Assembly: GCA_001798185.1 (NCBI GenBank)
Contig: MGRM01000004.1
Location: 56,264-120,263, forward strand
DNA length: 64,000 bases
Direction of reading: 5' to 3'
DNA from: Deltaproteobacteria bacterium RIFCSPHIGHO2_02_FULL_44_16
Lineage (GTDB): Bacteria > UBA10199 > 2-02-FULL-44-16
The notes under the pieces were generated by a model, which made no database searches, was not told the DNA's origin, and saw only the letters and a list, made by a program, of their open reading frames with translations. Of this stretch, positions 21,540-58,864 are shown piece after piece (position 1 is the stretch's first letter; the number at the start of each line of letters is the position of its first letter). Position numbers and translations under genes: made by a program.

Positions 21540-21740
21540 ATGCCCTTTACCCAATCACAACTCAACGCGCTTCAAGCGGCGATCGCTCAGGGAACCACTC
21601 GGGTCAAATATCAGGATCGCGAAGTGGAATACCGTTCCCTCTTAGAAATGCTTCAGCTGCTCAATATGATGAGACAGGAACTTGGCCTTGCCTCGGGCAA
21701 GATCGTCGTTAAAAAGGCTGAATTTTCCAAAGGGCTTTAA
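21540..21740 (+). CDS. Head-tail joining protein gpW-like
   Basis: ~66 aa, LNALQAAIAQGTTRVKYQDREVEYRSL, located between terminase and portal as in lambda. Confidence 0.65.
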   Translation: MPFTQSQLNALQAAIAQGTTRVKYQDREVEYRSLLEMLQLLNMMRQELGLASGKIVVKKAEFSKGL

Positions 21741-21741
21741 C

Positions 21742-23235
21742 ATGTCGAAACCAACTACTTTGGATCGCATGATTTCTTATTTTAATCCCAAGGCAGGTGC
21801 CGATCGCGCTCGATACCGTCTTTTGGAAGCGAATCTCCGGTCAATGGAAAAGAGGCGCTATGAGGCTGCAAGCAATAGTCGACGGACCAGTGGATGGATT
21901 GCAAACGACACGAGCTCGAATGCTGAAATAGGAACAGCGCTCCATCGTCTTCGAGCACGATCACGGGATCTTGTCCGCAATAACCCTTATGCCAACCGGG
22001 CAGTTCAGGTGATTTCTTCCAACGTTGTCGGTGCTGGTATTATTCCTCAACCCAAAAACAAAAGAATGGATGAACTTTGGAGCGCATGGGGAGACACAAC
22101 ACTTTGCGATTCTTTAGGTCAGCATAATTTCTATGGGATCCAGGCTCTTGCGATGAGGGAAATCGTTGAATCCGGTGAAATTTTAATCCGCCGCAAAATA
22201 CTGAAGCCAAATACTGGGTCTCCTCTTCCACTTCAATTGCAAGTTTTGGAGGGAGATTTCATAAACGATACCCAAGACAGGCTTCTGGATAATGGTCATT
22301 TTATTCATCAAGGAATTGAGTTTGATCGAAGCGGCCTACGAGTTGCCTATTATCTCTATGTCCAACATCCCGGAGAAAGCCCTCTTTTAGGTACTGGTCT
22401 TGAGACCATCCGAGTTCCCGCAAGTGAAATTCTTCATATCTACCGCATTGATCGGGCTGGCCAGATTCGCGGAGTCCCGTGGGGAACTCCTACCCTTCTG
22501 AAACTGAAAGATTTTGATGAATATGAAGATGCCCAACTCATCCGGCAAAAGATTGCCGCTTGCTTTGCAGCCTTTGTGACGGAACCGGACCCGCCAAGCG
22601 ATCATCATCCCGACAAATCGGGTATTGATAAAAATGTTGAGCCTGGTCTGATTTATGAACTGGCACCGGGAAAACAAATCACCTTCGGCAATCCCCCAAC
22701 GATTGGCGCGGACTATGAGCCCTATGCGACCATCAATTTAAGAGCTGTCGCTACCGGATTCGGTGTCACCTACGAAGCACTCACCCAAGATTACTCCAAG
22801 GTAAATTTCTCCAGCGGTCGGATGGGACACATTGAATTCCATCGGAACATTGATCAATGGCGTTGGCTGATGTTGATCCCTGGCCTTTGCGAGGAAGTAT
22901 GGAACTGGTTTGTGGAAGCTGCAGAACTTGCCAATCTCATCAGCGCAAAACGAATCAAGAAAGCAACATGGACGCCGCCCCGGCGTGAGATGATTGATCC
23001 CGTGAAGGAAACCGAAGCTCAGATCAAGGCCATTCGTGGAGGACTGAAGACGCTCTCAGAAACTATTCGTGAACAAGGTAACGATCCCGAAAAACAATTT
23101 GAAGAAATGAAGCAAGATAATGAATTGCTCGATAAATACCGATTGCAACTGGACAGTGATGCCCGGAAAATGAGCGCCAATGGCATGCAGCTCGGACAAA
23201 ATGGAACACAGGATCAAAATGGAAATGTAGAATAA
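21742..23235 (+). CDS. Portal protein (lambda gpB family)
   Basis: ~497 aa directly after gpW, with RRYEAASNSRRTSGW and NNPYANRAV segments typical of lambda-type portals. Confidence 0.8.
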   Translation: MSKPTTLDRMISYFNPKAGADRARYRLLEANLRSMEKRRYEAASNSRRTSGWIANDTSSNAEIGTALHRLRARSRDLVRNNPYANRAVQVISSNVVGAGIIPQPKNKRMDELWSAWGDTTLCDSLGQHNFYGIQALAMREIVESGEILIRRKILKPNTGSPLPLQLQVLEGDFINDTQDRLLDNGHFIHQGIEFDRSGLRVAYYLYVQHPGESPLLGTGLETIRVPASEILHIYRIDRAGQIRGVPWGTPTLLKLKDFDEYEDAQLIRQKIAACFAAFVTEPDPPSDHHPDKSGIDKNVEPGLIYELAPGKQITFGNPPTIGADYEPYATINLRAVATGFGVTYEALTQDYSKVNFSSGRMGHIEFHRNIDQWRWLMLIPGLCEEVWNWFVEAAELANLISAKRIKKATWTPPRREMIDPVKETEAQIKAIRGGLKTLSETIREQGNDPEKQFEEMKQDNELLDKYRLQLDSDARKMSANGMQLGQNGTQDQNGNVE

Positions 23236-23472
23236 AAAACCCCACCGATCACGCTCATCTCGCTCATAGCGAAATTACGAGTGACCGATGGGGCAAAGCG
23301 CTCTTCGGTCTTCCACTTCTATAGTGGATGACCAGGGTGATTGATCTGGACTCCCTTCAAAGCACGCCTTGTACCTTGCGACACAAGACACTCTCCTGGT
23401 TTCCGTGAAAACCAGGACTCTGGCTTGAAGAACTTTTTACTCCACTTAAGGGAGTGCTGGGGGCGGAACCGA

Positions 23473-23578
23473 CCGCGCGCACCGAAACCCATCATTGTTG
23501 TTGCGGTTGTCAGGGTTGTCGTTGTTGCGATTAGCCGCGCGCGCATTCCTCGCATTATTGTTGAAGGAACCGCCGCCG
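23473..23578 (-). repeat. DGR template repeat (TR)
   Basis: 106-bp gap-free match to VR 25137-25242 (87/106). All 19 mismatches are at TR adenines (T on the + strand). Reads as AAC/AAT-rich codons. Confidence 0.9.
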
Positions 23579-23584
23579 GTGCGA

Positions 23585-24659
23585 TCAATCACCCTTTGGG
23601 ACTCTTTTAAATGCAATCTCAGGCAAAATCAACTCTCTTAATCGCATGGTATCGGCATGTTTTGCGTGGCCAATCCAGGATTGTATAGACTGATTGATCT
23701 GCTTCCACTCAATGGTGCTTTCTCCGTAAAGAAATTGAAATTTTTTTAATTGTCTTTTGAATCGGAGGACATTTTCCCGTTTCAGGCGGCGATGTTCTGA
23801 AGAAATAATCAATCCCAAAAATGGCATCCCTTTATCCGTCGAAAAAATACGACACTTTTTTTCATGAAGCTTTAGGTGAAGCATCGCAAGATACATTTGA
23901 ATGTGACATTTTATATCCCATAAAAATTGTTTGTCGTCGTGTAAAACAGAGAAGTCATCCATGTAACGCAGATAATATCGACACCCTAATTGCTCTTTCA
24001 TGAAATGGTCGAAGCCGTTCAAGTAAATATTGGCAAAAAACTGGGATGTTAAATTGCCTATAGGGATACCTGTTTTGATGGAGTGATGGAGTGATGGAGT
24101 GATGGAGTGATGCAAGGACAGTGCCGTCTCTACCATATTTCTGAGAAGAATCCAAAATCTTCCTGATCAGCCAAAGAGTATCCTTGCAAGCCACTTTCTT
24201 CTCAATCAGTTCGAGCAAGACATCATGATTGATACTGGGAAAATATTGTTGGATGTCGCATTTCAAGGCGTATCGACATTTCTTGGCAAAGCTTTGAAAA
24301 CGATTTATCGCAACATGGGTTCCTTTCCCTTTACGTGTTGCATAGGAATCGTAAATGAACGTGGGATCAAAAATCGGCTCAAGAATATTGTGAATGGCGT
24401 GATGTACCACCCGATCTCGATAGGGAGCAGCGCTGATGATACGCTTCTTGGGTTCAAAAATCTGGAAGTGATGGTACGTTCCAGGCTCATAGCTTTTGGT
24501 CGCTAATTGATGGTGGAGATCCCATAACTCATTCTCGAGAGAAAAATTGAATTTTGCCGTTGAATATTTGAAACGCTTATTCTTCTGCGCGAGCTGCGCA
24601 GCGCACAAGAGATTTTGAAAGGAAATAATTCTTTCATAAAGATGGTTGTGTCGTCTCAT
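23585..24659 (-). pseudogene. DGR-type reverse transcriptase, split into two frames inside an octanucleotide repeat
   Basis: ORF 24659->23955 carries RT motifs 1-3 (PYRDRVVHHAI, CDIQQYFPSI). ORF 24136->23585 carries IGNLTSQ, YMDDF and PFLGL. The frames differ by 1 nt at 24076-24112. Confidence 0.85.
24076..24112. repeat. Tandem octanucleotide repeat (gatggagt x4.5) inside the RT gene
   Basis: Read directly from the sequence: units at 24077-24084, 24085-24092, 24093-24100 and 24101-24108, plus a partial gatg. Confidence 0.95.
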
Positions 24660-24675
24660 GAACAGAGTGGGTTCT

Positions 24676-25017
24676 TTACGCTTTTCCTTGTTGTTTGATC
24701 CAGCCGCCTAATTGCATGCCAATCTCGTTGATCATTTTGGAAATGACCTCGTAGCGATGAAGGTTGATGAGTTTCAAATCTTTGCAAAGACGAACATAAT
24801 AGCGAATCTTTTCCAATTTTATATTGGCTTGTCGAAGAAGAGGAAGTTTAGCCTGTGAGTAACAGGCTTCGAGTAGAATTTCTAAGGTATCAAAGCTGGC
24901 CATTTCCAGACGTTCCCCCAACATATATCGTTGGGACTTGGGAAAGGTTGAAACAGCCGGCACCACATAAAGCAAAAAATCGTAGACCTTGGTAATAATG
25001 AGGGGAGTATTATTCAT
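24676..25017 (-). CDS. avd: Avd-like accessory variability determinant (four-helix-bundle family)
   Basis: 113 aa with YDFLLYVVPAVSTFPKSQRYMLGERL, sitting between the DGR target and the RT. Confidence 0.8.
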   Translation of the reverse strand: MNNTPLIITKVYDFLLYVVPAVSTFPKSQRYMLGERLEMASFDTLEILLEACYSQAKLPLLRQANIKLEKIRYYVRLCKDLKLINLHRYEVISKMINEIGMQLGGWIKQQGKA

Positions 25018-25133
25018 TCATGAGCACATCTCATGTTTTTTGAAAATTTTCAAAAAAATACCCCCGCTTCGCGGGGGCAAGGATAAAAGAGTAAAAGGAC
25101 AAAGAGTTATTATTTAGAGTCCTGGGGGGGCAA

Positions 25134-25979
25134 CTACCGCGCGCACCGAAACCCAACAACGCCGTAGCGGAGGTCAGGGGAGTCGTAGTAGCGAAAAGCC
25201 GCGCGCGCATCCCCCGCACTATCGTAGAAGGAACCGCCGCCGAGTTCTACAAATTGCTTATCAGGATCGGTCAATGGATTTTTTGGGTCTTTACTCGACA
25301 TACGATCATAAAAACGTTCCTCATAAGCATCGCTTGTAGTCTCCCAAACATTTCCTGCCAAATCAATAATTCCAAAACTATTCGCTCGTTCAGGATGTTT
25401 TCCACAAACAGGAGCCGTTGTTCTCGCACCATTATCCCAAATAATGGCCTTATTAATTGGTGTTCCATATTCATCGGTTCCATTTGGCCCCTTTGAAGCT
25501 CTTTGTCTTTCAGCTGCCGTCATCAAACGGGCTCCTAGAGACGCACAATAGTCCACCTTCTCAGAAAGAGTCAGACCAACAACTGGGAAATCTGGCCCTT
25601 TCCTATTTTCAGAAAAATCAGGAACGGATTTTTTAGATTCCGAATTTGTTTCAATTGTAGTGCATTGGCTATCCACAAAAATTTTAGCTGCACTCTTACG
25701 CAATTGATCTAATGTTTTTTCTTGAACTGTTTGAGTGGAAGAACCTCTACTGCAACCAGAGAGTACTGCAGTTAATTGAGATCCCGCTTTGTCTAAAAAT
25801 GCTTGATATTCCCCAACAGAAACTTCATGCTCTTGAAGCTGAAAAGCGGACACCGTGACAGTAACCGTCTTCCCCGTGTTTGTTGTTTCATCAGACTCAC
25901 CATTTGTGGAACCCATCTGAAAGGTTCCTTCAGGAATAGGACGAAACTCATTCGAACAGCTTTTCGCTTCTCCAGCCAT
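25134..25979 (-). CDS. DGR target protein, FGE/C-type-lectin-fold (SUMF1-like) with C-terminal variable region
   Basis: GTFQMGS...VTVSAFQLQEHEVSVGEYQAF, GNVWETTSD, and C-terminal GGGSF...GFRCAR. The last 35 codons are the VR. Confidence 0.85.
   Translation of the reverse strand: MAGEAKSCSNEFRPIPEGTFQMGSTNGESDETTNTGKTVTVTVSAFQLQEHEVSVGEYQAFLDKAGSQLTAVLSGCSRGSSTQTVQEKTLDQLRKSAAKIFVDSQCTTIETNSESKKSVPDFSENRKGPDFPVVGLTLSEKVDYCASLGARLMTAAERQRASKGPNGTDEYGTPINKAIIWDNGARTTAPVCGKHPERANSFGIIDLAGNVWETTSDAYEERFYDRMSSKDPKNPLTDPDKQFVELGGGSFYDSAGDARAAFRYYDSPDLRYGVVGFRCAR
25137..25242 (-). repeat. DGR variable repeat (VR)
   Basis: See TR. Followed 3' (25117-25136) by an IMH-like G/C-rich stretch that differs from the TR-flanking copy, including a 1-nt indel. 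Confidence 0.9.
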
Positions 25980-26251
25980 AAAATGCTCCTCTCTGAAATT
26001 TATCGATCATAAAAATTCCCTGGAATCATTCAACAGGGGTCTTAATACCTGATATATTATCGTCTGGATCTGGAAATTGTTGCTACCGCCAGCTCAAAAA
26101 TTTTGAAGCTTATCCACGCCATAGCAAATAACCCTACGAAATCAAAAGCAGTTTTTTAGGTTCATCCAAGTAAAATTTGTCATCATAATCTTCATTTTTT
26201 CCAAAAATACCGATTGGAACCCATCTTTCCTAGCCTCAATATAGCCAGAAA

Positions 26252-28186
26252 ATGGACACGATTGCCGAGACAATTCCAACAAATAAACTGAAAGCAAATG
26301 TGCCCATTCTCTCGTTTCGCGCAGCCTTTGAACCCTCCACAATCGATTCCGAAAAGAGAAGCGTTGTCGTCCGCTGGTCCACGGGAGCTAAAGTTTTGCG
26401 CGGTGGATTTTTTACCGAACCTTTTCATGAAGAACTCTCGCTCCACAACGAATCGGTTCGCATGGACCGTTTGCGAAGCGGTGCTCCTTTATTGAATTCT
26501 CATGCCAGTCAACATTTATCCGATCAAATCGGGGTGGTTGAAGACGCCTGGCTCCAAGATGGGGCTGGCTATGCCCGCGTGCGATTCAGCGGCAGGCAAG
26601 ATGCCGGTCCCATCTTCCAGGATGTCAAAGATGGCATCGTTCGGAATGTTTCAGTCGGGTATCGCGTCTATAAATATAAGGATGTGAGCCAGGAGGGAGA
26701 TCCCGTCAAAACACTCCGAGCTGTGGATTGGGAACCGATGGAAATTTCGCTCGTGCCTATCGGAGCCGACGCCGGTGCCAACATCAGATCCTTCGACAGG
26801 CTCAGGACGGAGTCTGAAAAAGAAAATGTGAACGAATGCGAAATTGAAGTTCGCGCTCAAACCAAAAGAATTGAGGAGAGTATGATGCACATCGATATCG
26901 AGACAATTAAAAAAGAGACGTTAGAAGCAGAGCGTAAAAGGATTTCTGAAATCACCACATTAGTCCGAAAATTTAATCTCGATGAGGCGTTTTCGGCATC
27001 GCTCATCGATCAAACTGTGTCTGTTGAAGAAGCCCGTTCCCAAATTTTAAATAAGCTGGCTGAGCGCACTGAAAAAGAGGGAAACATTCGAAACCATGTG
27101 GATGTTCATGTGACCCGTGATGAAGCGGATACCCGCCGTTCTGGCATGATCGAATCCTTACTTCATCGATATGATCCAAAAACGAATAAGATCAGCGAGA
27201 AAGGGACTCCTTACATTGGCATGAGCCTTCTTCGCTTAGCTGAAGAAGTCCTCGTACGAAATCATATTTCTATCCGTGGCTTGACCAAGTCCGATATTGC
27301 TCAGCGCGCTTTTCTCTCTACCAGTGATTTCCCAGCTGTTCTTGCGAATGTTGCAAATAAAACCTTGAGGCAGGCGTATGAGCTCGCACCTCAAACATTC
27401 CGTCCTTTTGTACGACAAGTCTTTCTTCCGGATTTCAAGGAAGTTTCTCGTATTCAATTAAGCGAAGCCCCCAAGTTGGAGAAAGTGAACCAGTCAGGAG
27501 AATTTAAATATGGGGTTTTGAGTGATGCGGCTGAGAAATACAGCCTAGGAACGTTTGGAAAAATCATCGCCATCAACCGCCAGGTGGTGATCAATGATGA
27601 CCTGGAAGCCTTCACCAGAATTCCCGCCCTGCACGGAAGAGCTGCCGCTGATCTTGAAAGTGATCTGGTCTATGCGGTCTTCATGGCGAATGCCGTATTG
27701 GCCGATGGTATTCCGCTTTTTCATGCCACGCATACGAACTTGGGAACTCCAGGTGCGATCAGTGAAGTGACGTTGGGTGAAGGCCGCAAGCTCATGAGAA
27801 GACAATCCGGCCTTCAAAGAGGAAGAGACAAACAACTCCTGAATATTCAAGCTCGCTACTTGATCGTTCCTGCAGCACTGGAAACGTTAGCTCAAAAACA
27901 ATTGGCAGCGATTATCCCGAACAGTTCTACGGAGGTAAATCCTTTTTCAGGACTCTATACCTTGATTGCGGAACCGAGACTCGATGATCACTCCGCTACC
28001 GCTTGGTATTTGGCTGCGGATCCTGCACAGATTGACACCATTGAGATCGCCTACCTGCAAGGACAAGCCGGTGTCTATACGGAAAACCGACAAGGTTTTG
28101 AAATTGACGGCCTTGAGATTAAAGCTCGTTTGGATTGCGCGGTGAAGGCGATCGACCATCGAGGTCTTTTGAAGAACGCAGGATAA
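26252..28186 (+). CDS. Prohead protease (S78/HK97-type) fused to major capsid protein
   Basis: N-terminal protease part (LLNSHAS, NVSVGYRV, EISLVPIGADAGA). C-terminal capsid part (SDFPAVLANVANKTLRQAY..., GKIIAINRQVVINDDLEAF). Confidence 0.75.
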   Translation: MDTIAETIPTNKLKANVPILSFRAAFEPSTIDSEKRSVVVRWSTGAKVLRGGFFTEPFHEELSLHNESVRMDRLRSGAPLLNSHASQHLSDQIGVVEDAWLQDGAGYARVRFSGRQDAGPIFQDVKDGIVRNVSVGYRVYKYKDVSQEGDPVKTLRAVDWEPMEISLVPIGADAGANIRSFDRLRTESEKENVNECEIEVRAQTKRIEESMMHIDIETIKKETLEAERKRISEITTLVRKFNLDEAFSASLIDQTVSVEEARSQILNKLAERTEKEGNIRNHVDVHVTRDEADTRRSGMIESLLHRYDPKTNKISEKGTPYIGMSLLRLAEEVLVRNHISIRGLTKSDIAQRAFLSTSDFPAVLANVANKTLRQAYELAPQTFRPFVRQVFLPDFKEVSRIQLSEAPKLEKVNQSGEFKYGVLSDAAEKYSLGTFGKIIAINRQVVINDDLEAFTRIPALHGRAAADLESDLVYAVFMANAVLADGIPLFHATHTNLGTPGAISEVTLGEGRKLMRRQSGLQRGRDKQLLNIQARYLIVPAALETLAQKQLAAIIPNSSTEVNPFSGLYTLIAEPRLDDHSATAWYLAADPAQIDTIEIAYLQGQAGVYTENRQGFEIDGLEIKARLDCAVKAIDHRGLLKNAG

Positions 28187-43848: not shown

Positions 43849-44796
43849 ATGAGCTCAGAACTACCAACCTCGATGCCTACTCCTTCTTGTCGAATCCTTT
43901 CACTAGATGGGGGAGGAGCCAAGGGATTCTACACCTTAGGAGTGTTGAAAGAAATCGAGGCGATGGTCGGTCGACCACTTTGTGAGAGTTTTGATCTCAT
44001 CTTCGGTACGAGCACAGGAGCCATCATCGCTGCGCTTTTAGCATTGGGTCATAAAGTAGATGATATTCACACTCTCTATAAAGAACACGTGCCGGCCATA
44101 ATGCGTCGTCGCACTCCGCGAGGAAGGTCCAAAGCCTTATCTCATCTCGCAAAAATAGTTTTTGGTAATCGCAGCTTTGCCGACGTCAAAACCGGTGTGG
44201 GAATCGTGGCAACACGATGGGCATTTGAAAAACCGATGATTTTCAAAGCCAGCGTGGCACAAGCTCATGGTCGGCATAGCACTTTCGTCCCGGGCTTTGG
44301 TTGTACGATTGCGGATGCAGTGAGGGCTTCCTGTTCGGCATATCCATTTTTTAAGAGACCAATTATCACAACTAGCAAAGGAGAAGAGATTGAATTGATC
44401 GATGGCGGTTATTGCGCGAACAATCCAACCCTTTATGCCATTGCCGATGCAGTTATTGCGCTCGAAAAGCCTCGTTCCGATCTGCGCGTTGTCAGCATTG
44501 GTGTAGGAGTATATCCGGAGCCAAAGCGCTGGGGTTTGTCTTGGCTGATCAAACGCTTCGTAAGCGTGCAACTTCTCCAAAAAACCCTAAACGTTAATAC
44601 ATTCTCAATGGAACAATTGCGGACGATTCTCTTCAAAGATATTCGGACCGTTCGCATTAACGATACGTTCGAGCGTCCTGAGATGGCGACTGATCTGATG
44701 GAATCTGATCTTAGAAAACTGGGCATGCTTTACCAGCGTGGCAGCGAGTCGTTTGCGAAACACGAAGCGGAACTGAAGGAAATGTTGGTGCAATAG
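43849..44796 (+). CDS. capV: Patatin-like phospholipase (CBASS CapV-like effector)
   Basis: LSLDGGGAKG oxyanion box, GTSTGA nucleophile elbow, and DGGYCANNP catalytic Asp motif. Confidence 0.75.
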   Translation: MSSELPTSMPTPSCRILSLDGGGAKGFYTLGVLKEIEAMVGRPLCESFDLIFGTSTGAIIAALLALGHKVDDIHTLYKEHVPAIMRRRTPRGRSKALSHLAKIVFGNRSFADVKTGVGIVATRWAFEKPMIFKASVAQAHGRHSTFVPGFGCTIADAVRASCSAYPFFKRPIITTSKGEEIELIDGGYCANNPTLYAIADAVIALEKPRSDLRVVSIGVGVYPEPKRWGLSWLIKRFVSVQLLQKTLNVNTFSMEQLRTILFKDIRTVRINDTFERPEMATDLMESDLRKLGMLYQRGSESFAKHEAELKEMLVQ

Positions 44797-45791: not shown

Positions 45792-48401
45792 TCATATTTC
45801 AAAAACCTTTAACACTTCGTCGCCGTAATGGTTGATGACCTTCACAGCAATCTTGCCCGTCTCAGGTTTGACGAACGGTTGGCTTACTGTGCTGTAGAGG
45901 TTACTCCAGGCTACTTCGTCGATGTCGGTCCGTAGCGCTCGCTTGAGTTTGTCATATGGTTCTTCAGCTCCGGTGAAGTAGGCGTGGCGCACAAAGAAAC
46001 TCTCGCCATTATAGTTGGTATCGATGAACCAGCAAGCGATATCATCGGTGGAGGAACTACGAATCTGTCCCGTAGTCGGGTCGTACACATCCACGCCCTT
46101 GATCTCGGCAATGATCTGTCCATTCTTCTGTTTCTTGATCTCCACATCCGGTTCACCAAATACCATAAATAAATTGCCTGCACCGGTCTTCTTCAGCAAT
46201 TCATCGCCCATCGCTAGGTCGGGATTCATCTTGGCCGGCAGTACGGTCAGTTTACCATATCGCTTAACTTCTTCAGCCACATGTGGATCGAAGGCAAAGC
46301 CACAGACAATAAGCATATCGAAGCCCACACCTTGCACCGCTTCTTTGGCGGCTTCTTTTACTTGCTGAGGACCAACGGTACCATGCTCAGGGCCAATAGA
46401 GACAGCCACCCGTCTGTTTTTTCCATCGGCATCGATATATTCACCGGCTGCATGCAGCCAGGCTCCGGCGTAAGGATCAAGTCGAGAAAATGTGAGCCTC
46501 TCACTCTTGCGAGTGTTTTGCACACCTGCTTTCTTCAGATTATCCAGGATCATTGTAGTGAAATCCTGCTGCTTATGAGCTTCCTGCTCTGTTACCGTGC
46601 CGTTCTGATTCTCATCTGCGGTAGATAGTACACGATGAGGTGATAAACTCTCCACGGAGAACGGGCCACATACTCGCACGCGTTTGTTGTCTTCGTAAGG
46701 TTGATCATACAACGTTTCGGCCTCGGTGTGGCGGGCAATGGCGATATCTATCTGCTCACGCGTCATCCCTTCCTTGATGTCAGGATTGTGGGCGATAGAT
46801 TTGAGCGTGACATGTGGTACTCGTTTGTAAACGAAACCTTTGCGAATGTCGTTTTCAGTTTTATATTCTGGTGGCATCTTTCCGGTTAACTCCATTTCCT
46901 TTTTGAGGCCTTCGGAGGAGTCAGCCAGTAAGTAGTAGGGATACTTAGCAGACATCAATCGTGTACGCGCTAGAGCTAGAGCGACGCGGCTGGTATCACA
47001 GGTAATCCATCGTCGACCCCACTGTTCAGCAACGAAAGCAGTGGTGCCACTGCCACAGGTAGGATCTAGTACTAAATCTCCGGGATCAGTGGAAGCAATC
47101 AAGCATCGTTCAATTGCTGTAGTTGTTGTCTGAACAACGTACTGTTTATCCGAAGCACCCCCGGTATCAGCCCACAATGAAGTAAAACGCGAAACAGGAT
47201 AATCATCTTGAAGTAGGATCTGTTGCAAACCGTTTCCTGATGCTTGTAAACGATTCGCTTCTGCCATTTTTTTCATCCCATCCCGATCGGTTTTCCAACA
47301 TGATCCTTTCGGTGGCGGATATTTTTTCCCTTCAAACTCAAATATAAAATCTTGATTCTGTCGGTACTGCGCGGGAAGCATTGAAACGAGTCGATAAACT
47401 CTTGCACCCTTTGGAAGTAGTCGGTGATTATTAATCTCTTCACTGGTTAGTTTCCTGCGTGAACCATCTGGCATTTGTGCCCAAGACCACAAAGAATCGC
47501 CTTCTACAGACATATCTCGATATAGTGGACGAGATTTAACCTGTTCATTTTTTTTGGCGTACCAGAGTATGTAATCAGAGACCTGTTCGAAATAATCTGA
47601 ACCAAGAGGCATGGTCTTTTTTCTAAAAGTGATAAGTGAACAAAAGTTCTCACTACCAAACACCTCATCCATCACACACCGTACCAAGTGTACATTTTCA
47701 TCCCCGATTTGCACAAACATGCTGCCGGTTTCTGTCAAAAGTTCTCGAGCTACAACTAGCCGATCACGCAAGTAAGCCAAATAGGAGTGAACCCCCAACT
47801 TCCAGGTATCTCGAAAGGCACGCACCTGCTCTGGCTGGCGGGTGGTGTCTTCAGCCTTACCATCTTTCACATCGTACTTGCGGGTGCTAACTTGCCAGTT
47901 GGAGCCGAATTTGATGCCATAGGGTGGATCAAGATAGATAGTTTGAATTTTTCCCTTGAGTCCTTCCTTCTCGGCCAATGAGGTCATCACCAGCAAAGAA
48001 TCCCCAAGAATCAGTCGATTTGTCCAATTTTGTTCGTGATGGTAAAATTCAACTTTCTGTTCAAAATTATGTGGGCCACCATTGAAGTCAGCGAATAGGT
48101 TCGTCTGATTGTCGTCAGGCTGTGCAATACGAGGTAGCGCATCGATAATGGCCTGGGGATGAATTTTTTCCTGAATGTAAACAGGCACAACAGGAACAGC
48201 AAGACTTTCACGGTCTTGCTCATCTTTACCCTTCCAAACTAATTGTGGATCGAGTGATGGATCGCGTGGATAAAGCATCGTCTTTGGAGCAAGTTCATCA
48301 TCAGCCACAAAGTCGCGCAGTTCTTCAGTGGGTATATTAGTGCGTTTATCCTTGTGGCGAATGGAAGCAATTTTCGTTGGAGTTGATTTCTTTTTAGCCA
48401 T
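45792..48401 (-). CDS. mod: Type III-like DNA methyltransferase (Mod)
   Basis: IYLDPPYGIKFGSNW catalytic motif, DPTCGSGTTAFVAEQWGRRWI AdoMet motif, 869 aa. Confidence 0.8.
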   Translation of the reverse strand: MAKKKSTPTKIASIRHKDKRTNIPTEELRDFVADDELAPKTMLYPRDPSLDPQLVWKGKDEQDRESLAVPVVPVYIQEKIHPQAIIDALPRIAQPDDNQTNLFADFNGGPHNFEQKVEFYHHEQNWTNRLILGDSLLVMTSLAEKEGLKGKIQTIYLDPPYGIKFGSNWQVSTRKYDVKDGKAEDTTRQPEQVRAFRDTWKLGVHSYLAYLRDRLVVARELLTETGSMFVQIGDENVHLVRCVMDEVFGSENFCSLITFRKKTMPLGSDYFEQVSDYILWYAKKNEQVKSRPLYRDMSVEGDSLWSWAQMPDGSRRKLTSEEINNHRLLPKGARVYRLVSMLPAQYRQNQDFIFEFEGKKYPPPKGSCWKTDRDGMKKMAEANRLQASGNGLQQILLQDDYPVSRFTSLWADTGGASDKQYVVQTTTTAIERCLIASTDPGDLVLDPTCGSGTTAFVAEQWGRRWITCDTSRVALALARTRLMSAKYPYYLLADSSEGLKKEMELTGKMPPEYKTENDIRKGFVYKRVPHVTLKSIAHNPDIKEGMTREQIDIAIARHTEAETLYDQPYEDNKRVRVCGPFSVESLSPHRVLSTADENQNGTVTEQEAHKQQDFTTMILDNLKKAGVQNTRKSERLTFSRLDPYAGAWLHAAGEYIDADGKNRRVAVSIGPEHGTVGPQQVKEAAKEAVQGVGFDMLIVCGFAFDPHVAEEVKRYGKLTVLPAKMNPDLAMGDELLKKTGAGNLFMVFGEPDVEIKKQKNGQIIAEIKGVDVYDPTTGQIRSSSTDDIACWFIDTNYNGESFFVRHAYFTGAEEPYDKLKRALRTDIDEVAWSNLYSTVSQPFVKPETGKIAVKVINHYGDEVLKVFEI

Positions 48402-51399
48402 GAGCGATTTCCTTTTTTGTTTCCGCTTTTGCCTTTTTTAGGAAGTCGCGGATAAAATTTTGTGCATCCCACGGGTCGGTAACTTCGATGAATGCCCAGC
48501 GCCCAAAACCGCTGTGGTTATTGATGGCCGGCACCCACAACGTACATGCCGTGGAGACCTTGGCAGCCTTGTCTTTCTTTTTTTCGCCAGTTACCTCAAC
48601 GATCAAATTTAAGAGATCATCCGGGCCATTCCCATCGTCAATGTAGGAGATAAAGTCGGGAATGTAGTTTTTTCCCTCACCGTTCAAAGTATACGGGATA
48701 GTAAAACTAAGGTTGTGGTTCTTCACATAGCGGATGACCTCTGGCATATCTTCCAGCACTTCAGCCATCTTCTGTTCCCATGAGCCAGTATCAGCAACAA
48801 CATGTGAGATGTGACACTTGTCTTTGCTGGTTGCGAAAACGGACCGGGTAGTATCGAAATCGACGTAACGTGTGGATCCAAGGACATCATATGGCCGCAG
48901 GATGGGCTTAAGGGCTGCTGTACCATCAGTTGAAGCAACGATGGATTTATAGATCCGGTCGGCGGCGTCATGCGCAAATTCAATCAATAAAAGTAACTGT
49001 GGAAAAGTGTTGTCCTTGAGCGTGACGCATTCGGCAAGCCAACGTTTAGCAATGTTGAGCAGTTGCGGAAAGAGCCAGGGTTTGTCATTGCCATCGTCGT
49101 CACGGAAGTATTTTTCGAGCGTAAGCTTTGCCAATAAGAAGGCGACCTCGTTGAGCCTGTGGCGTTTGAGATCATCTAAAGTGTGAATGCTGGATTCACC
49201 AACGATGGGAGCGTTCTCGGTCTTCGTGGGAATATCCACGGTCGAAAGAACGAGTTTGGATTCATCGCTAAAGGTGGCTATGAGCCGCTCTCCAGCCACA
49301 TCGTAACGATAGCCGAGTAAACGTGGAAATGTAATCTCGTGGGCGACACGGCTTTCGAGGGCGCGAACACGTGTAGGTAAAGGTCCAGGCTTGGGGTCTG
49401 TGGTTGCACCACTACAAGGAATAAATGAAAATGGAACACCGTAGACTTCAGCGTATTCGGGATCGAAATGACCAGTCTTATTGGCGGCATAACTCATGCG
49501 ACGCAAGGCACGACCAACCACTTGTTCGCATAGTAATTGCGTACCAAATGCGCGCACACCAAGAACGTGAGTGACAGTATTGGCATCCCAGCCCTCTGTG
49601 AGCATAGAGACGCTAATCACGCACTTGACGTGTTCTCCAAGCTTGCCGGCCTTACCCACTGTATTCATAACTTCGCGTAGTAGGTCTTCATCGGTAAGGC
49701 TATCAGCATCACGACCTGGAAAACGGATTCGGGATTCGGCTTTGAACTCATCAATTTCACGAGCAGCTATCTTTTTGAAATCATCGCTCATTGATTCGCC
49801 CGATTCGAGTTGCTGGCTATCTACTAGGATAGTATTCGGGCGGTGCATCCAAGAACCGTTTCCGTCATCGTTGCGGAAGATAGGCAATTGCCCGGCTTGA
49901 ACAATGGTCTGTTCACCAATTTGCTTTTCCCAGCCGGCGATAAAGTCGAACACTAATTTAGAGACGTTGGTATTGTTGCAAACTACGATGAAGACAGGTG
50001 GTGTGTTACCACGGGCACGTGCTTCTGTATTTTGCTCCCACAAGCGATAATACTTCTCGTAGTTGCCGTAGAGGCTATGTAGGGCTCCTTGCAATTCGAC
50101 GGGCAGTTTCGGTTCACCCCCAACCTCATCCGTTTTACGGCCTTTTCTTGGTAGTTGTTCGCGAATGCGTATCCACAAATCGCGGTAAGTAGGTTGTTCA
50201 CCTGTCATTGAATCGTCGGCAATAGGAACGCGGGGCACCTTGACGATACCTGCTTCGATGGCGTCAATGAGAGAGAAATCAGAGACAACCCACGGAAAAA
50301 GGGTGCCTTCCGGGTAGCCTGAACCACGCAAAAAGAATGGTGTGGCCGAAAGATCATAGATTGCTTTCACGCCGATCTTGGCTTTCACTGTCTCAATGCC
50401 AGAAATCCAAATGCGGGCTTCTTCCTCGCGGCTCTTAGCTTCTATGCGATCATCACCTGTAAGCGGTTCGTCATCGCTGTCGGGTTTACGGCGATAGCAA
50501 TGATGGGCTTCGTCGTTGAGAACGATAATGTTTTTTTTGGTGCTCAACTCACGACAGACGCGTCGCACCATCTGATCTGGAGTTTCGGTAAATGGGCTTG
50601 GTTTTCCATCAGCGAGAATCGATTTTGTGATCTTGCCTGCCGCAATTTTTTCGCGAAGTTGGAAAGCATGAAAATTGGTGATAAGAATTTTGGCTTGGCC
50701 GAGCTGGTCTTGTAAATGAGCCGGAACAATATCGCGTTGGCGGTAGTAGTTCTCCGGATCGTTTGGCAATAGAACACGTAGCCGATCGCGAATAGTAATA
50801 CCAGGCGTGACGATCAGAAAAGTGTCAGAGAAACGAGCATCCTGCGGATTGGCGCGTTTATTAAGTGTATGCCAGGCAATGAGCATCCCCATGACGACAG
50901 TTTTGCCGGAACCAGTAGCCATTTTAAACGTAGTGCGTGGCAAGCCGGGGTTTGAGGTGTCGTTCCCTTCTTGTATCTTGTTCTCAATCCAGGCATCACC
51001 ATATTTCTTAGCGACTTCGGCAATATAGATGGCAGTTTCAAGAGCCTCGATTTGGCAGAAGAAAAGTTTCTTCTCACGATTGGGATCGGTCCAGTAAGCA
51101 ATTAAACGTGCAGTCGTCGGCGTAACACCGACATGGCCACCCTGACGCCACATGGAAACGCGGCGGCGGATGTCATTGACGAGCTTGTTCTCTTCAATAC
51201 GATCTTGTGTCCACTCTGTTTCGAATTGGAGTTGGTTGGCTCCTTTTTTCTTCGATTTAGCGATGGGCACAAAGTACGAACTAGTTCGACGCGCTTCGAT
51301 AATTTCGTCAGTGATCCCGTCATCATTAAAACGAAAGTGCTTTGTAGGCTCCTCGAAAGGAGAATTGATAATCGGGTTTTCGATAATGACTTGTTTCAT
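48394..51399 (-). CDS. res: Type III-like restriction subunit (Res; SF2 helicase plus C-terminal nuclease)
   Basis: MATGSGKT (motif I), LNDEAHH (II), SATP (III), LTEGWDA/QVVGRALR (V/VI). C-terminal IPDF...IVEVTGEKK nuclease-like motif. Confidence 0.8.
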   Translation of the reverse strand: MKQVIIENPIINSPFEEPTKHFRFNDDGITDEIIEARRTSSYFVPIAKSKKKGANQLQFETEWTQDRIEENKLVNDIRRRVSMWRQGGHVGVTPTTARLIAYWTDPNREKKLFFCQIEALETAIYIAEVAKKYGDAWIENKIQEGNDTSNPGLPRTTFKMATGSGKTVVMGMLIAWHTLNKRANPQDARFSDTFLIVTPGITIRDRLRVLLPNDPENYYRQRDIVPAHLQDQLGQAKILITNFHAFQLREKIAAGKITKSILADGKPSPFTETPDQMVRRVCRELSTKKNIIVLNDEAHHCYRRKPDSDDEPLTGDDRIEAKSREEEARIWISGIETVKAKIGVKAIYDLSATPFFLRGSGYPEGTLFPWVVSDFSLIDAIEAGIVKVPRVPIADDSMTGEQPTYRDLWIRIREQLPRKGRKTDEVGGEPKLPVELQGALHSLYGNYEKYYRLWEQNTEARARGNTPPVFIVVCNNTNVSKLVFDFIAGWEKQIGEQTIVQAGQLPIFRNDDGNGSWMHRPNTILVDSQQLESGESMSDDFKKIAAREIDEFKAESRIRFPGRDADSLTDEDLLREVMNTVGKAGKLGEHVKCVISVSMLTEGWDANTVTHVLGVRAFGTQLLCEQVVGRALRRMSYAANKTGHFDPEYAEVYGVPFSFIPCSGATTDPKPGPLPTRVRALESRVAHEITFPRLLGYRYDVAGERLIATFSDESKLVLSTVDIPTKTENAPIVGESSIHTLDDLKRHRLNEVAFLLAKLTLEKYFRDDDGNDKPWLFPQLLNIAKRWLAECVTLKDNTFPQLLLLIEFAHDAADRIYKSIVASTDGTAALKPILRPYDVLGSTRYVDFDTTRSVFATSKDKCHISHVVADTGSWEQKMAEVLEDMPEVIRYVKNHNLSFTIPYTLNGEGKNYIPDFISYIDDGNGPDDLLNLIVEVTGEKKKDKAAKVSTACTLWVPAINNHSGFGRWAFIEVTDPWDAQNFIRDFLKKAKAETKKEIAHG

Positions 51400-57080: not shown

Positions 57081-58853
57081 TTGATGGAAAACAATATAAA
57101 GAAAATTCTCCAGGATCTTTTTCCGGAGAAGAGTGCCCGAAGCTTGGCCCCGGGCAGTGCGATCAAGGCAGGAGTCTACCTCCGCCAGAGCACGATCGAT
57201 GGACAGAATCATGAAAGCATCGAAGAACAATTAGAATTCATCCGGCATCGCCTGAATTCTTGCCAGGTGCGATCTGCGATCTATCCTCACGGAAAGATCG
57301 AAATCAGCGAGGAGTTCATCTATCTCGACCGGGGCAAGACCGGACGTGTCGGGAGGGACAACTACGACGCCTTCAAACACTCGATCCAAATGGGTCAATT
57401 CAGGCTCGGTCTGGTTTACGATCTATCCCGCCTAACACGTGAACTGGGCAGTCTCCTTGATATTTATAACATCGCGCACGCCTACGACGTGGAATTGATC
57501 TCCGTCTCGGAATTGATCAGTTCTCACACGGAGGGCGCACGGATTCATTTCATTGCCAAAGGGATGGCGAATGAAATGCAGTCCGAATCGATTTCCAGGC
57601 AGACTCGTCGCGGGCTCGAATTACGTGCCCTCTCAGGCAAGTCCACAGGCCATAACCCTTACGGCTATGTGAGCATATCTCAAAATCCGGACAAGCCACG
57701 TGACTCTCATGATCCTGCCAATAAAACTGTGGTGGTTCACGAAGAAAATGCCATCGTCGTCCGAAAAATCTTTGAACTCTACGACGCTTCAGCCCAAGGC
57801 GTGGATAGTATCGCCAAATTGCTCAATGAAGAACAGATCCCGTCACCGAGCGGGAAACAATGGATCGGTCGCACGGTCTATGGGATTCTCAAACAACCCA
57901 AATACATCGGTGTGTGGGTTTACGGGCGCACCTGCATCAAGCGTGACTCGACACGGGACAAGCTCATTCAAGTCAACCGACCACAAAATGAGTGGGTCGT
58001 TCAAACCTACGAGCGCCTACGGATTATTCCCCAGGATCTCTGGGATCGCGTGCAATCAAAACTGAAGACTGTAGAAGAAACGCGCAGGTTAGCACGCAAC
58101 AAATCCGACTCCATCTGGGGGCGCAACCGGGGACTTCCGAATCATTTTTTCACCGGTGCTTTGGTATGCGGCGAGTGCGGCAGCAACTTCCTGACGATCT
58201 CCGGAAAGGGAGGTGGTTACATGGGTTGCCGGAATGCCCATCGTCTAAATAGTTGTGACAATAAGCGTATTGTCCTGATTCGCTGGGTGGAATACACATT
58301 GCTCACGGAACTCAGATCATGGATCAACAATCCGGAGACGCTGGATCGCATCTGTAAGCAGATCAATGGGAGTATCGCCGACCGGATGTCGGTCATCCCG
58401 GCCAAGATTCAAGAACTAGAAAAGGAACTCGCCAAGGTCCAGAAGAGCATCGATAATTTTGTGAAATTCATCGCCGAGGGAAATGCCTCGGAGACAGTGG
58501 CCTCTGCCCTGAAAAAGGCCGAGGAAAAGAAAGGTGCTCTGGAAGCACAGCTCTTTAATCTGCGTGGCCGGGAACAGAAGCAGATTTATCTGACTCCGTA
58601 TGCAATTCGTGGTGCTCTTTGTGACATGGACGAAATCCTGGGGCAGGACATTCCCCGGGCAAACGCTTACATCAAAAGTTTATTCGTGGATGCGATTCGA
58701 ATGGTTCCGAAGAAGGAAGACGGTGGATATTATGAGGCGCAAGGACAAGTAAACCTCACCAATCTCGTGAGGTTCACTTTCCCTGTTAATGGCGCTCCAT
58801 ACGGGAATCGAACCCGTATTTCAGCCTTGAGAGGGCCGCGTCCTAACCGTTAG
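57081..58853 (+). CDS. Large serine recombinase (phage integrase)
   Basis: Catalytic AGVYLRQSTIDGQ, recombinase domain, Zn ribbon CGECGSNF...C, and a coiled coil. The 3' end runs through attR into the tRNA gene. Confidence 0.85.
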   Translation: MMENNIKKILQDLFPEKSARSLAPGSAIKAGVYLRQSTIDGQNHESIEEQLEFIRHRLNSCQVRSAIYPHGKIEISEEFIYLDRGKTGRVGRDNYDAFKHSIQMGQFRLGLVYDLSRLTRELGSLLDIYNIAHAYDVELISVSELISSHTEGARIHFIAKGMANEMQSESISRQTRRGLELRALSGKSTGHNPYGYVSISQNPDKPRDSHDPANKTVVVHEENAIVVRKIFELYDASAQGVDSIAKLLNEEQIPSPSGKQWIGRTVYGILKQPKYIGVWVYGRTCIKRDSTRDKLIQVNRPQNEWVVQTYERLRIIPQDLWDRVQSKLKTVEETRRLARNKSDSIWGRNRGLPNHFFTGALVCGECGSNFLTISGKGGGYMGCRNAHRLNSCDNKRIVLIRWVEYTLLTELRSWINNPETLDRICKQINGSIADRMSVIPAKIQELEKELAKVQKSIDNFVKFIAEGNASETVASALKKAEEKKGALEAQLFNLRGREQKQIYLTPYAIRGALCDMDEILGQDIPRANAYIKSLFVDAIRMVPKKEDGGYYEAQGQVNLTNLVRFTFPVNGAPYGNRTRISALRGPRPNR

Positions 58854-58864
58854 ACGAATAGAGC
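58790..58864 (-). tRNA. tRNA-Glu (anticodon CUC)
   Basis: 75-nt cloverleaf folded by hand. Acceptor GCUCUAU/AUGGAGC, D arm GUCU-AACGGUUA-GGAC, anticodon arm CGGCC-CUCUCAA-GGCUG, T arm ACGGG-UUCGAUU-CCCGU, then GCCA. Confidence 0.85.
58792..58809. repeat. attR core within tRNA-Glu
   Basis: Identical 18 bp to 16110-16127. Confidence 0.8.

Follow-up and report, generated by a model that had tools for sequence, protein, structure and literature searches.

The DGR in the stretch of DNA analysed here (the window; 64,000 nucleotides) encodes a reverse transcriptase (RT) whose gene is divided into two open reading frames at a perfect octanucleotide repeat, and the number of repeat units differs between contigs which are otherwise identical. 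We consider it very probable that this tract is a hypermutable repeat which decides whether or not the RT is produced. Slipped-strand phase variation of the RT gene, serving as a functional and reversible switch, is in our view the best reading of the data and a probable one; what we infer is that slippage is the mechanism, that it is reversible, that it affects retrohoming and that switching is under selection. The features of the element are listed in Table 1.

Table 1. Features of the DGR in the window (positions are those of the whole stretch)
Feature	Positions	Strand	Match or remark
DGR RT gene, whole (in frame at 2, 5 or 8 units)	23585..24659	minus	Pfam RVT_1, PDB 8ub7_A
RT N-terminal ORF, 234 aa	23955..24659	minus	Fingers and motifs 1-3; reads across the repeat and on to a stop in the wrong frame
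RT C-terminal ORF, 183 aa	23585..24136	minus	+1 frame relative to the first; repeat-encoded SLHHSITPSLHHSI, GIPIGNLTSQ, YMDD, thumb
SSR; coding strand (CATCACTC)x4.6, plus strand TGATGGAG	24076..24112	minus	TRF
TR, 107 nt	23472..23578	minus	Directly after the RT stop codon; Asn-rich (AAC) peptide frame
bAvd accessory protein, 113 aa	24676..25017	minus	Pfam PF22296 bAvd, E 4e-20
DGR target, 281 aa, FGE-sulfatase / C-type-lectin fold type	25134..25979	minus	PF03781, E 4e-34; VR at the C-terminus
VR, 107 nt	25136..25242	minus	19 mismatches to TR

Rejoined across the break, the RT matches Pfam RVT_1 (E 1e-24) and, as its best match in the PDB, 8ub7_A (E 4e-69), which we take to be the bRT encoded by Bordetella phage BPP-1. 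The rejoined ORF has the GIPIGNLTSQ motif 4 and the YMDD of the DGR clade of RTs, the gene being frame-broken at present. In an alignment with 24 full-length relatives (25 clade members in all) it retains 81 of the 81 invariant columns, and the frame break is thus the sole lesion of the RT in the window. A preliminary description of this DNA had placed motifs 1-3 in the first ORF and IGNLTSQ, YMDD and the thumb in the second, with an octanucleotide repeat splitting an RT that was otherwise intact and free of further stops. The ORFs, the TRF analysis and the 81 retained residues bear out this account; the same two ORFs were found and neither half contains any further stop.

TRF reports the tract as a period-8 array of 4.6 copies with 100% matches, the top-scoring of all tandem repeats in the window. 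It is perfect over its 37 nt; the maximum reached in 200 shuffles of the window was 20 nt (periods 4, 5, 7 and 8), and the runner-up among the perfect tandem repeats of period 2-9 in the window itself has 18 nt. The loop that contains the (CATCACTC) tract is just upstream of motif 4 of the RT, and the tract stops 5 nt short of the GIPIGN codons. Its unit is located within an ORF and has a length, 8 nt, that cannot be divided by 3, so that the RT frame shifts with each gain or loss of a unit. When alleles of 0-9 units were modelled, a single ORF resulted from 2, 5 and 8 units (352, 360 and 368 aa, respectively), while the 4-unit allele reached a stop at aa 234 and the 3-unit allele at aa 197. 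These in silico alleles agree with all three of the hand translations made earlier, in which 5.5 and 2.5 copies restored the frame and 4.5 copies led to a +1 shift and a truncated product.

The RT belongs to a cassette, ordered target, bAvd, RT and TR on the minus strand, which lies between the portal and the protease/capsid genes of a myovirus-like prophage. The Nfo protein of the host has no more than about 55-60% identity to any named sequence, its best named relatives being uncultured 'Deltaproteobacteria' of the Rifle aquifer. All 19 mismatches between TR and VR fall at TR adenines, 19 of the 28 TR adenines being substituted, and the changes convert AAC codons to codons for Tyr, Asp, Ser, Gly, Phe, Leu or Val. 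VR makes up the last 35 codons of the target gene and lies some 1.1 kb from the repeat tract. With adenine-specific TR/VR differences, a target that carries VR at its 3' end and an Avd protein, the DGR is genuine, and it was active in the past, since all of the TR/VR differences are at TR adenines. VR is the same in every assembled contig that covers it, whether that contig has 3 or 4 units, so that the diversity in the population expected of ongoing retrohoming was not seen in the contigs covering VR. An invariant VR is in keeping with an RT in the off state. Within VR there are also contig ends and a scaffold gap, which we rejected as a sign of VR heterogeneity because the ends fall in a GCGCGCGCGG block and not beside the adenine sites.

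Fifteen contigs, assembled independently and from several samples, carry this element, six of them with 3 units and nine with 4. With the rejoined RT as query, a search of protein sequences gave a 197-residue protein (P0026) that is the predicted product of the 3-unit allele and is encoded on six contigs, of which three were fetched (L001-L003; ENA ERZ4903137, ERZ27254842 and ERZ4903072). The exact products of the 4-unit allele were each found on five contigs (P0121, N-terminal, 234 aa; P0123, C-terminal, 183 aa), with one contig retrieved under both, giving nine distinct contigs: three from ENA (ERZ27254846, ERZ4903185 and ERZ27254763), three ANAN16-1 scaffolds (ERZ28563641, ERZ28563625 and ERZ28563660) and three from JGI (3300025311, 3300002529 and 3300025317). 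The 4-unit loci are labelled L004-L013. An identical Avd is encoded on 15 contigs, matching the 6 + 9 contigs with a broken RT.

Compared with the window, the 3-unit contigs L001 (20,594 nt), L002 (14,251 nt) and L003 (11,137 nt) have no mismatches and a single 8-nt gap, which lies in the tract, and a 4-unit contig (L009; 16,277 nt) is the same as the window throughout. No site other than the tract therefore varies in over 20 kb, and flanks of up to 20.6 kb have zero mismatches. Both alleles occur within one accession series in two cases: ERZ27254842 (3 units) with ERZ27254846 and ERZ27254763 (4 units), and ERZ4903137 and ERZ4903072 (3 units) with ERZ4903185 (4 units). A copy number that differs among otherwise identical genomes, as in SSR contingency loci, was found for this element and also for a homologue described below.

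When the predicted products of alleles with 0-9 units were looked up as exact matches in a collection of 15 billion proteins, only those of 3 and 4 units were found; the in-frame 2-, 5- and 8-unit products of this element gave no exact match there. The 25-mers which flank the tract had no match in the genome or viral contig collections, and a search of the JGI metagenomes with them gave one contig that was already known. As 3 and 4 units are both out of frame, any in-frame ancestor requires at least two slippage events, within a period in which not one substitution arose in 20 kb. The preliminary description had proposed looking for mixed alleles in one population. Polymorphic lengths were indeed found, as 3 and 4 units across contigs, but no in-frame allele of this element was among them. 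The outcome that it had named as decisive against a switch, namely one fixed copy number everywhere accompanied by further lesions, was not seen in the contigs and OFF alleles examined: the lengths vary and these OFF alleles are undamaged.

Perfect non-triplet repeats recur at the same position in related RTs. Among the closest full-length relatives (60-73% identity), length differs almost solely in the loop before GIPIGNLTSQ, and many of these loops encode peptides with a four-residue period (ASQPASQ, HPSIHPSIHP, PTDRPTDR, QPASQPASQ). In RTs of 60-77% identity, perfect repeats ending 0-6 nt before the GIPIGNLTSQ codons were verified in DNA, with (CATC)n, (CAGC)n, (AACTC)n, (CCAATCA)n and (CATCACTC)n as units. 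In-frame examples are L014, with (CATC)6.5, L018, with (CAGC)4.8, and L015, with (CAATCAG)2.4; the tract is OFF in L173, with (CATC)8.2, in L017, with (CAGC)9.8, in L175, with (CCAATCA)6.4 and from a sample shared with L003, and in L176, with (AACTC)~5. The ON allele L018 and the OFF allele L017 match at every aligned base over 1750 nt, their one difference being a 20-nt indel that amounts to five (CAGC) units. This is the one strict pair: an all-against-all BLAST of the sampled RTs gave no further close ON/OFF pairs, and among the cluster members of ten repeat-bearing homologues, whose clusters are tiny, only the P0009/P0131 pair was informative. Thus, the element in the window was seen only OFF (3 and 4 units), the homologue L018/L017 was seen both ON and OFF, and the clade as a whole occupies all three frames.

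The OFF alleles L173, L175 and L017 retain 80-81 of the 81 invariant residues, and their C-terminal halves are uninterrupted. Adenine-specific TR/VR mismatches are found both beside an OFF allele (10 of 11 in L173) and beside an ON allele (20 of 21 in L015). When the N-terminal 183 residues served as query, about 45 N-terminal fragments of 60-77% identity were found; in these the periodic peptide is followed by motif-4 DNA read in one of the two wrong frames, with tails of 'RYPYRQFNIPVFC...' or '...VSLSAI'. Several of the contigs that encode them are long (128 kb, 61 kb, 27 kb and 2.7 Mb). A census of 90%-identity clusters, drawn from two differently biased searches so that its counts are not frequencies, contains 29 clusters in frame, 15 by pattern (about 21 by eye) in the first wrong frame ('YPYRQ' tail), 10 in the other wrong frame (tail 'VSL/SAI') and about 11 which end within the loop. 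All three frames are thus populated, and at least 25 clusters are frame-shifted exactly at the loop. The preliminary description proposed that slippage toggles the RT frame; the polymorphism of the tract, the repeats of the clade in three frames and the ON/OFF pair of the homologue support this view.

The loop peptides repeat every 4, 5, 7 or 8 aa, periods of 1-2 aa being absent, which means that harmless triplet or hexamer repeats do not occur in the loop. Compared with PDB 8ub7_A, the loop adds 13 residues immediately ahead of motif 4, and variation in its length should be tolerated; among in-frame clade members it ranges from about 10 to 27 residues. RTs of 56% identity or less have a longer, conserved and non-repetitive loop (..YFPGDDLFTP..R.GIPIGN), and a search of the genome and viral collections with the clade alignment returned only RTs of 55% identity or less, all from this non-repeat clade. 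Since the units resemble one another, independent origins of the repeats are fewer than the cluster counts suggest, and to judge from their sequences many of the repeat types may share ancestry.

Repeats may be mis-assembled, and an assembly error had been put forward in the preliminary description as one explanation of the broken frame. However, several assemblies made independently with different pipelines (ENA k141 contigs, ANAN16-1 scaffolds and JGI) give each allele in identical form, and the tract, at 29-37 nt, is shorter than both typical Illumina reads and the k of 'k141' assemblies. The reproduction of both lengths across assemblers rules out an assembly artefact, and we give practically no weight to an error of assembly or sequencing. 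The two ORFs might instead be translated separately, with the N-terminal (fingers) and C-terminal (palm and thumb) products reassembling into an active RT, and the C-terminal ORF of the 4-unit allele does have its own ATG upstream of motif 4. The starts of the C-terminal ORFs differ between alleles. The downstream ORF called in the 3-unit allele has 138 aa and, being 45 residues shorter than the 183-aa ORF, starts downstream of motif 4; the C-terminal ORF of L017 starts within motif 4, at the M of GIPIGNLMSQ; and there is no consistent split architecture over the clade. A split enzyme is thus scarcely credible. Full-length RT could also be obtained from these alleles by ribosomal frameshifting or transcriptional slippage in or near the repeat, in which case they would not truly be OFF. 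The CAAAAC that follows the 3-unit tract could, judging by its sequence, let tRNA-Lys slip by -1 on A-AAA into the correct frame. We nevertheless regard recoding as very improbable: the 3- and 4-unit alleles require shifts in opposite directions, in-frame alleles are common, which would be unexpected for a dedicated recoding signal, and the homologues occur in all three frames with differing repeat units. The conserved slippery heptamer and the fixed two-frame layout of a programmed frameshift are lacking across these homologues.

Neutral decay calls for closer consideration. The loop may be slippage-prone and tolerant of insertions, with the frame-shifted alleles as early pseudogenes and the repeat as a liability and not a selected switch; DGRs are often dispensable, so that such alleles could be en route to loss. 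The element in the window is OFF in all 15 contigs, both OFF frames are common in the clade, as would be the case under free drift, and some OFF alleles (P0139, P0155 and P0182) have very short residual repeats which would revert rarely. Truncated or frame-shifted DGR RTs have also been taken as inactivation before (PMC3521204). However, the multiple lesions and lost conserved residues of a decayed pseudogene were found neither in the window RT nor in the three other OFF alleles checked in DNA. A perfect non-triplet repeat occupies one site in lineages whose proteins have diverged by 25-40% and whose unit sequences differ, triplet and hexamer repeats are absent even though they are the kind that mutation and purifying selection would tolerate, and the more distant DGR RTs have no repeats at the loop. 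The most consistent interpretation of these observations is, in our view, the switch, and neutral decay is possible but rather unlikely. The 'recently decayed RT' of the preliminary description fares in the same way, as the OFF alleles examined have no secondary damage, but for this particular copy it is possible.

As a phase-variable switch, the tract would operate as follows. Slipped-strand mispairing during DNA replication would add or remove whole 8-nt units within a dispensable surface loop just before motif 4, and each slip would move motifs 4-7 and the thumb, including the catalytic YMDD of the palm, into or out of frame. At the two copy numbers found here, 3 and 4 units, the product would be no more than a fingers fragment, no cDNA would be made and the VR of the target would be frozen; with 2, 5 or 8 units mutagenic retrohoming could resume. 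In this way lineages could fix a VR variant that serves them well, and the occasional revertant would preserve the ability to diversify. With an 8-nt unit at 3-5 copies, the tract may slip more slowly than classical tetranucleotide tracts. The recurrence of a perfect repeat of 4, 5, 7 or 8 nt at the same loop indicates that the tract behaves like a contingency locus which gates a targeted hypermutator. On balance, we lean towards the broader proposal that the whole RT clade evolved and maintained a slippery pre-motif-4 repeat as a heritable, reversible switch, in which repeat slippage, a stochastic first-tier mutator, would toggle the programmed adenine mutagenesis of a receptor-binding protein as the second tier.

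Phase variation by SSRs is well known from tetranucleotide tracts in the lic, lgt and Type III mod genes (phasevarions) of Haemophilus and Neisseria. The tract described here resembles these contingency loci in having a perfect non-triplet repeat within an ORF, in that copy number is the sole difference between genomes, in the existence of ON and OFF frames (here in the homologue and the clade) and in its location at a site that tolerates changes in length. The mod genes of phasevarions, which are global modifiers, offer the closest analogy to the gating of a mutator. The loci differ in what they control, as SSRs gate surface or modification enzymes whereas an RT driving targeted hypermutation is concerned here, with an 8-nt unit. 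They also differ in their hosts, which are host-adapted pathogens in the known cases and here uncultured groundwater bacteria and a prophage.

The DGR of BPP-1 (bRT-Avd-TR-VR/Mtd) shares with that in the window the GIPIGxLTSQ motif 4, the YMDD, a bAvd, TR/VR differences at adenines only, a target of the C-type-lectin/FGE-sulfatase type with a C-terminal VR, and its location in a phage genome. The RT of PDB 8ub7 lacks the loop insertion, which appears as a 13-residue gap in the alignment, and no repeat gating has been described for it. In contrast to BPP-1, the DGR in the window has its TR downstream of the RT, and its target is encoded between portal and capsid genes and not among tail-fibre genes. 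Slippage-prone repeats in phages have been proposed as a form of bet-hedging for the homopolymer tracts of T2 and T4 (bioRxiv 2025, PMC12633550); these contingency loci of T-even phages are homopolymer runs and involve no RT or DGR. The DiGReF survey recorded DGRs whose RT gene was broken although their TR/VR was intact, and attributed them to sporadic inactivation or sequencing errors (PMC3521204). Unlike here, the survey mentions neither a repeat tract nor a shared site nor polymorphism for those RTs.

We found no prior description of a repeat-based or phase-variable switch of a DGR RT in the searchable full-text literature, in keeping with the preliminary description, whose author was likewise aware of no such gating. 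The variable tract and the repeats of the related RTs point to a heritable contingency-locus switch on the DGR RT, apparently clade-wide, that has not been described previously.

To our knowledge, the control of DGR activity is largely unknown. Most new VR variants are presumably worse than the one that has been selected, and unrestrained mutagenesis should therefore be costly. A frame switch in the RT would be a simple, heritable and reversible control of DGR mutagenesis, and it would join two classic systems of evolvability, contingency loci and DGRs. Split RT genes in metagenomes should not be dismissed as pseudogenes or assembly errors, and the length of the repeat could mark whether the DGR of a population is active. 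If the proposal is correct, the switch would be the first genetic mechanism known to regulate the activity of DGRs, and populations would be mixtures of 'explorer' and 'locked' lineages.

The portal gene and the protease/major-capsid fusion gene of a myovirus-like prophage flank the DGR cassette (window 21682–28186), which is on the minus strand and is not surrounded by tail-fibre genes. Its target is a stand-alone FGE-sulfatase/CLec protein of 281 aa. The genes for tRNA-Glu(ctc) and the large serine recombinase overlap on opposite strands (window 57081–58864), and this overlap probably represents the prophage end and attachment site. In the type III mod gene, TRF reported no long tandem repeat, only two arrays of about two copies with periods of 9 and 12.

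Features in and around the prophage (window coordinates)
Feature	Coordinates	Remarks
Large host ORF, 1136 aa	1675–5085	Adenylate/guanylate cyclase catalytic domain and RHS repeats
Portal gene	21682–23235	One flank of the DGR cassette
Protease/major-capsid fusion	26252–28186	Other flank of the DGR cassette
Patatin-like phospholipase	43849–44796	In or adjoining the prophage
Type III restriction-modification mod	45792–48401	In or adjoining the prophage
Type III restriction-modification res	48394–51399	In or adjoining the prophage
Large serine recombinase	57081–58853	
tRNA-Glu(ctc) gene	58790–58864	Strand opposite to the large serine recombinase

Among the metagenome sequences L003, L010, L012 and L013, which bear the same element, three are contigs, each from a different assembly, that break off at 25202, 25181 and 25204; in the fourth, a scaffold, an N gap stands in place of 25204–25310. 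These ends and the gap (25181–25310) fall within or adjoining the VR. We considered VR heterogeneity as their meaning, but they provide no valid evidence for it, because the ends at 25202 and 25204 are located in the GCGCGCGCGG block and not in the neighbourhood of the adenine sites. In one ENA contig the target stop codon TAG (window 25134–25136) is changed to CAG, which adds eight residues to the end of the protein (..FRCARQLPPQDSK); this variant, P0129, is otherwise identical to the target protein, VR included. In L005/L008, seven clustered differences downstream of the TR, at window 23314–23324 and near one contig end, are probably assembly-end noise.

The sample of ENA ERZ4903072 contains a 3-unit copy of the prophage together with a second, different DGR (L175), the RT frame of which is broken by a heptanucleotide repeat, (CCAATCA)6.4, in the same loop as the repeat of the window RT. 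We also note a homologous RT in L014 (42–1284), adjoined by a DUF559 endonuclease-like gene, which has a (CATC)6.5 tract in frame and is missing its first ~70 residues. The element may be truncated, or the Logan contig may be a chimera.

Immediately following the repeat in the window RT gene is a CAAAAC run (window 24071–24076). As judged from the sequence, tRNA-Lys would be able to slip by −1 on the A-AAA within this run. Such a slip in the 3-unit allele would put the RT back in frame and could give leaky expression.
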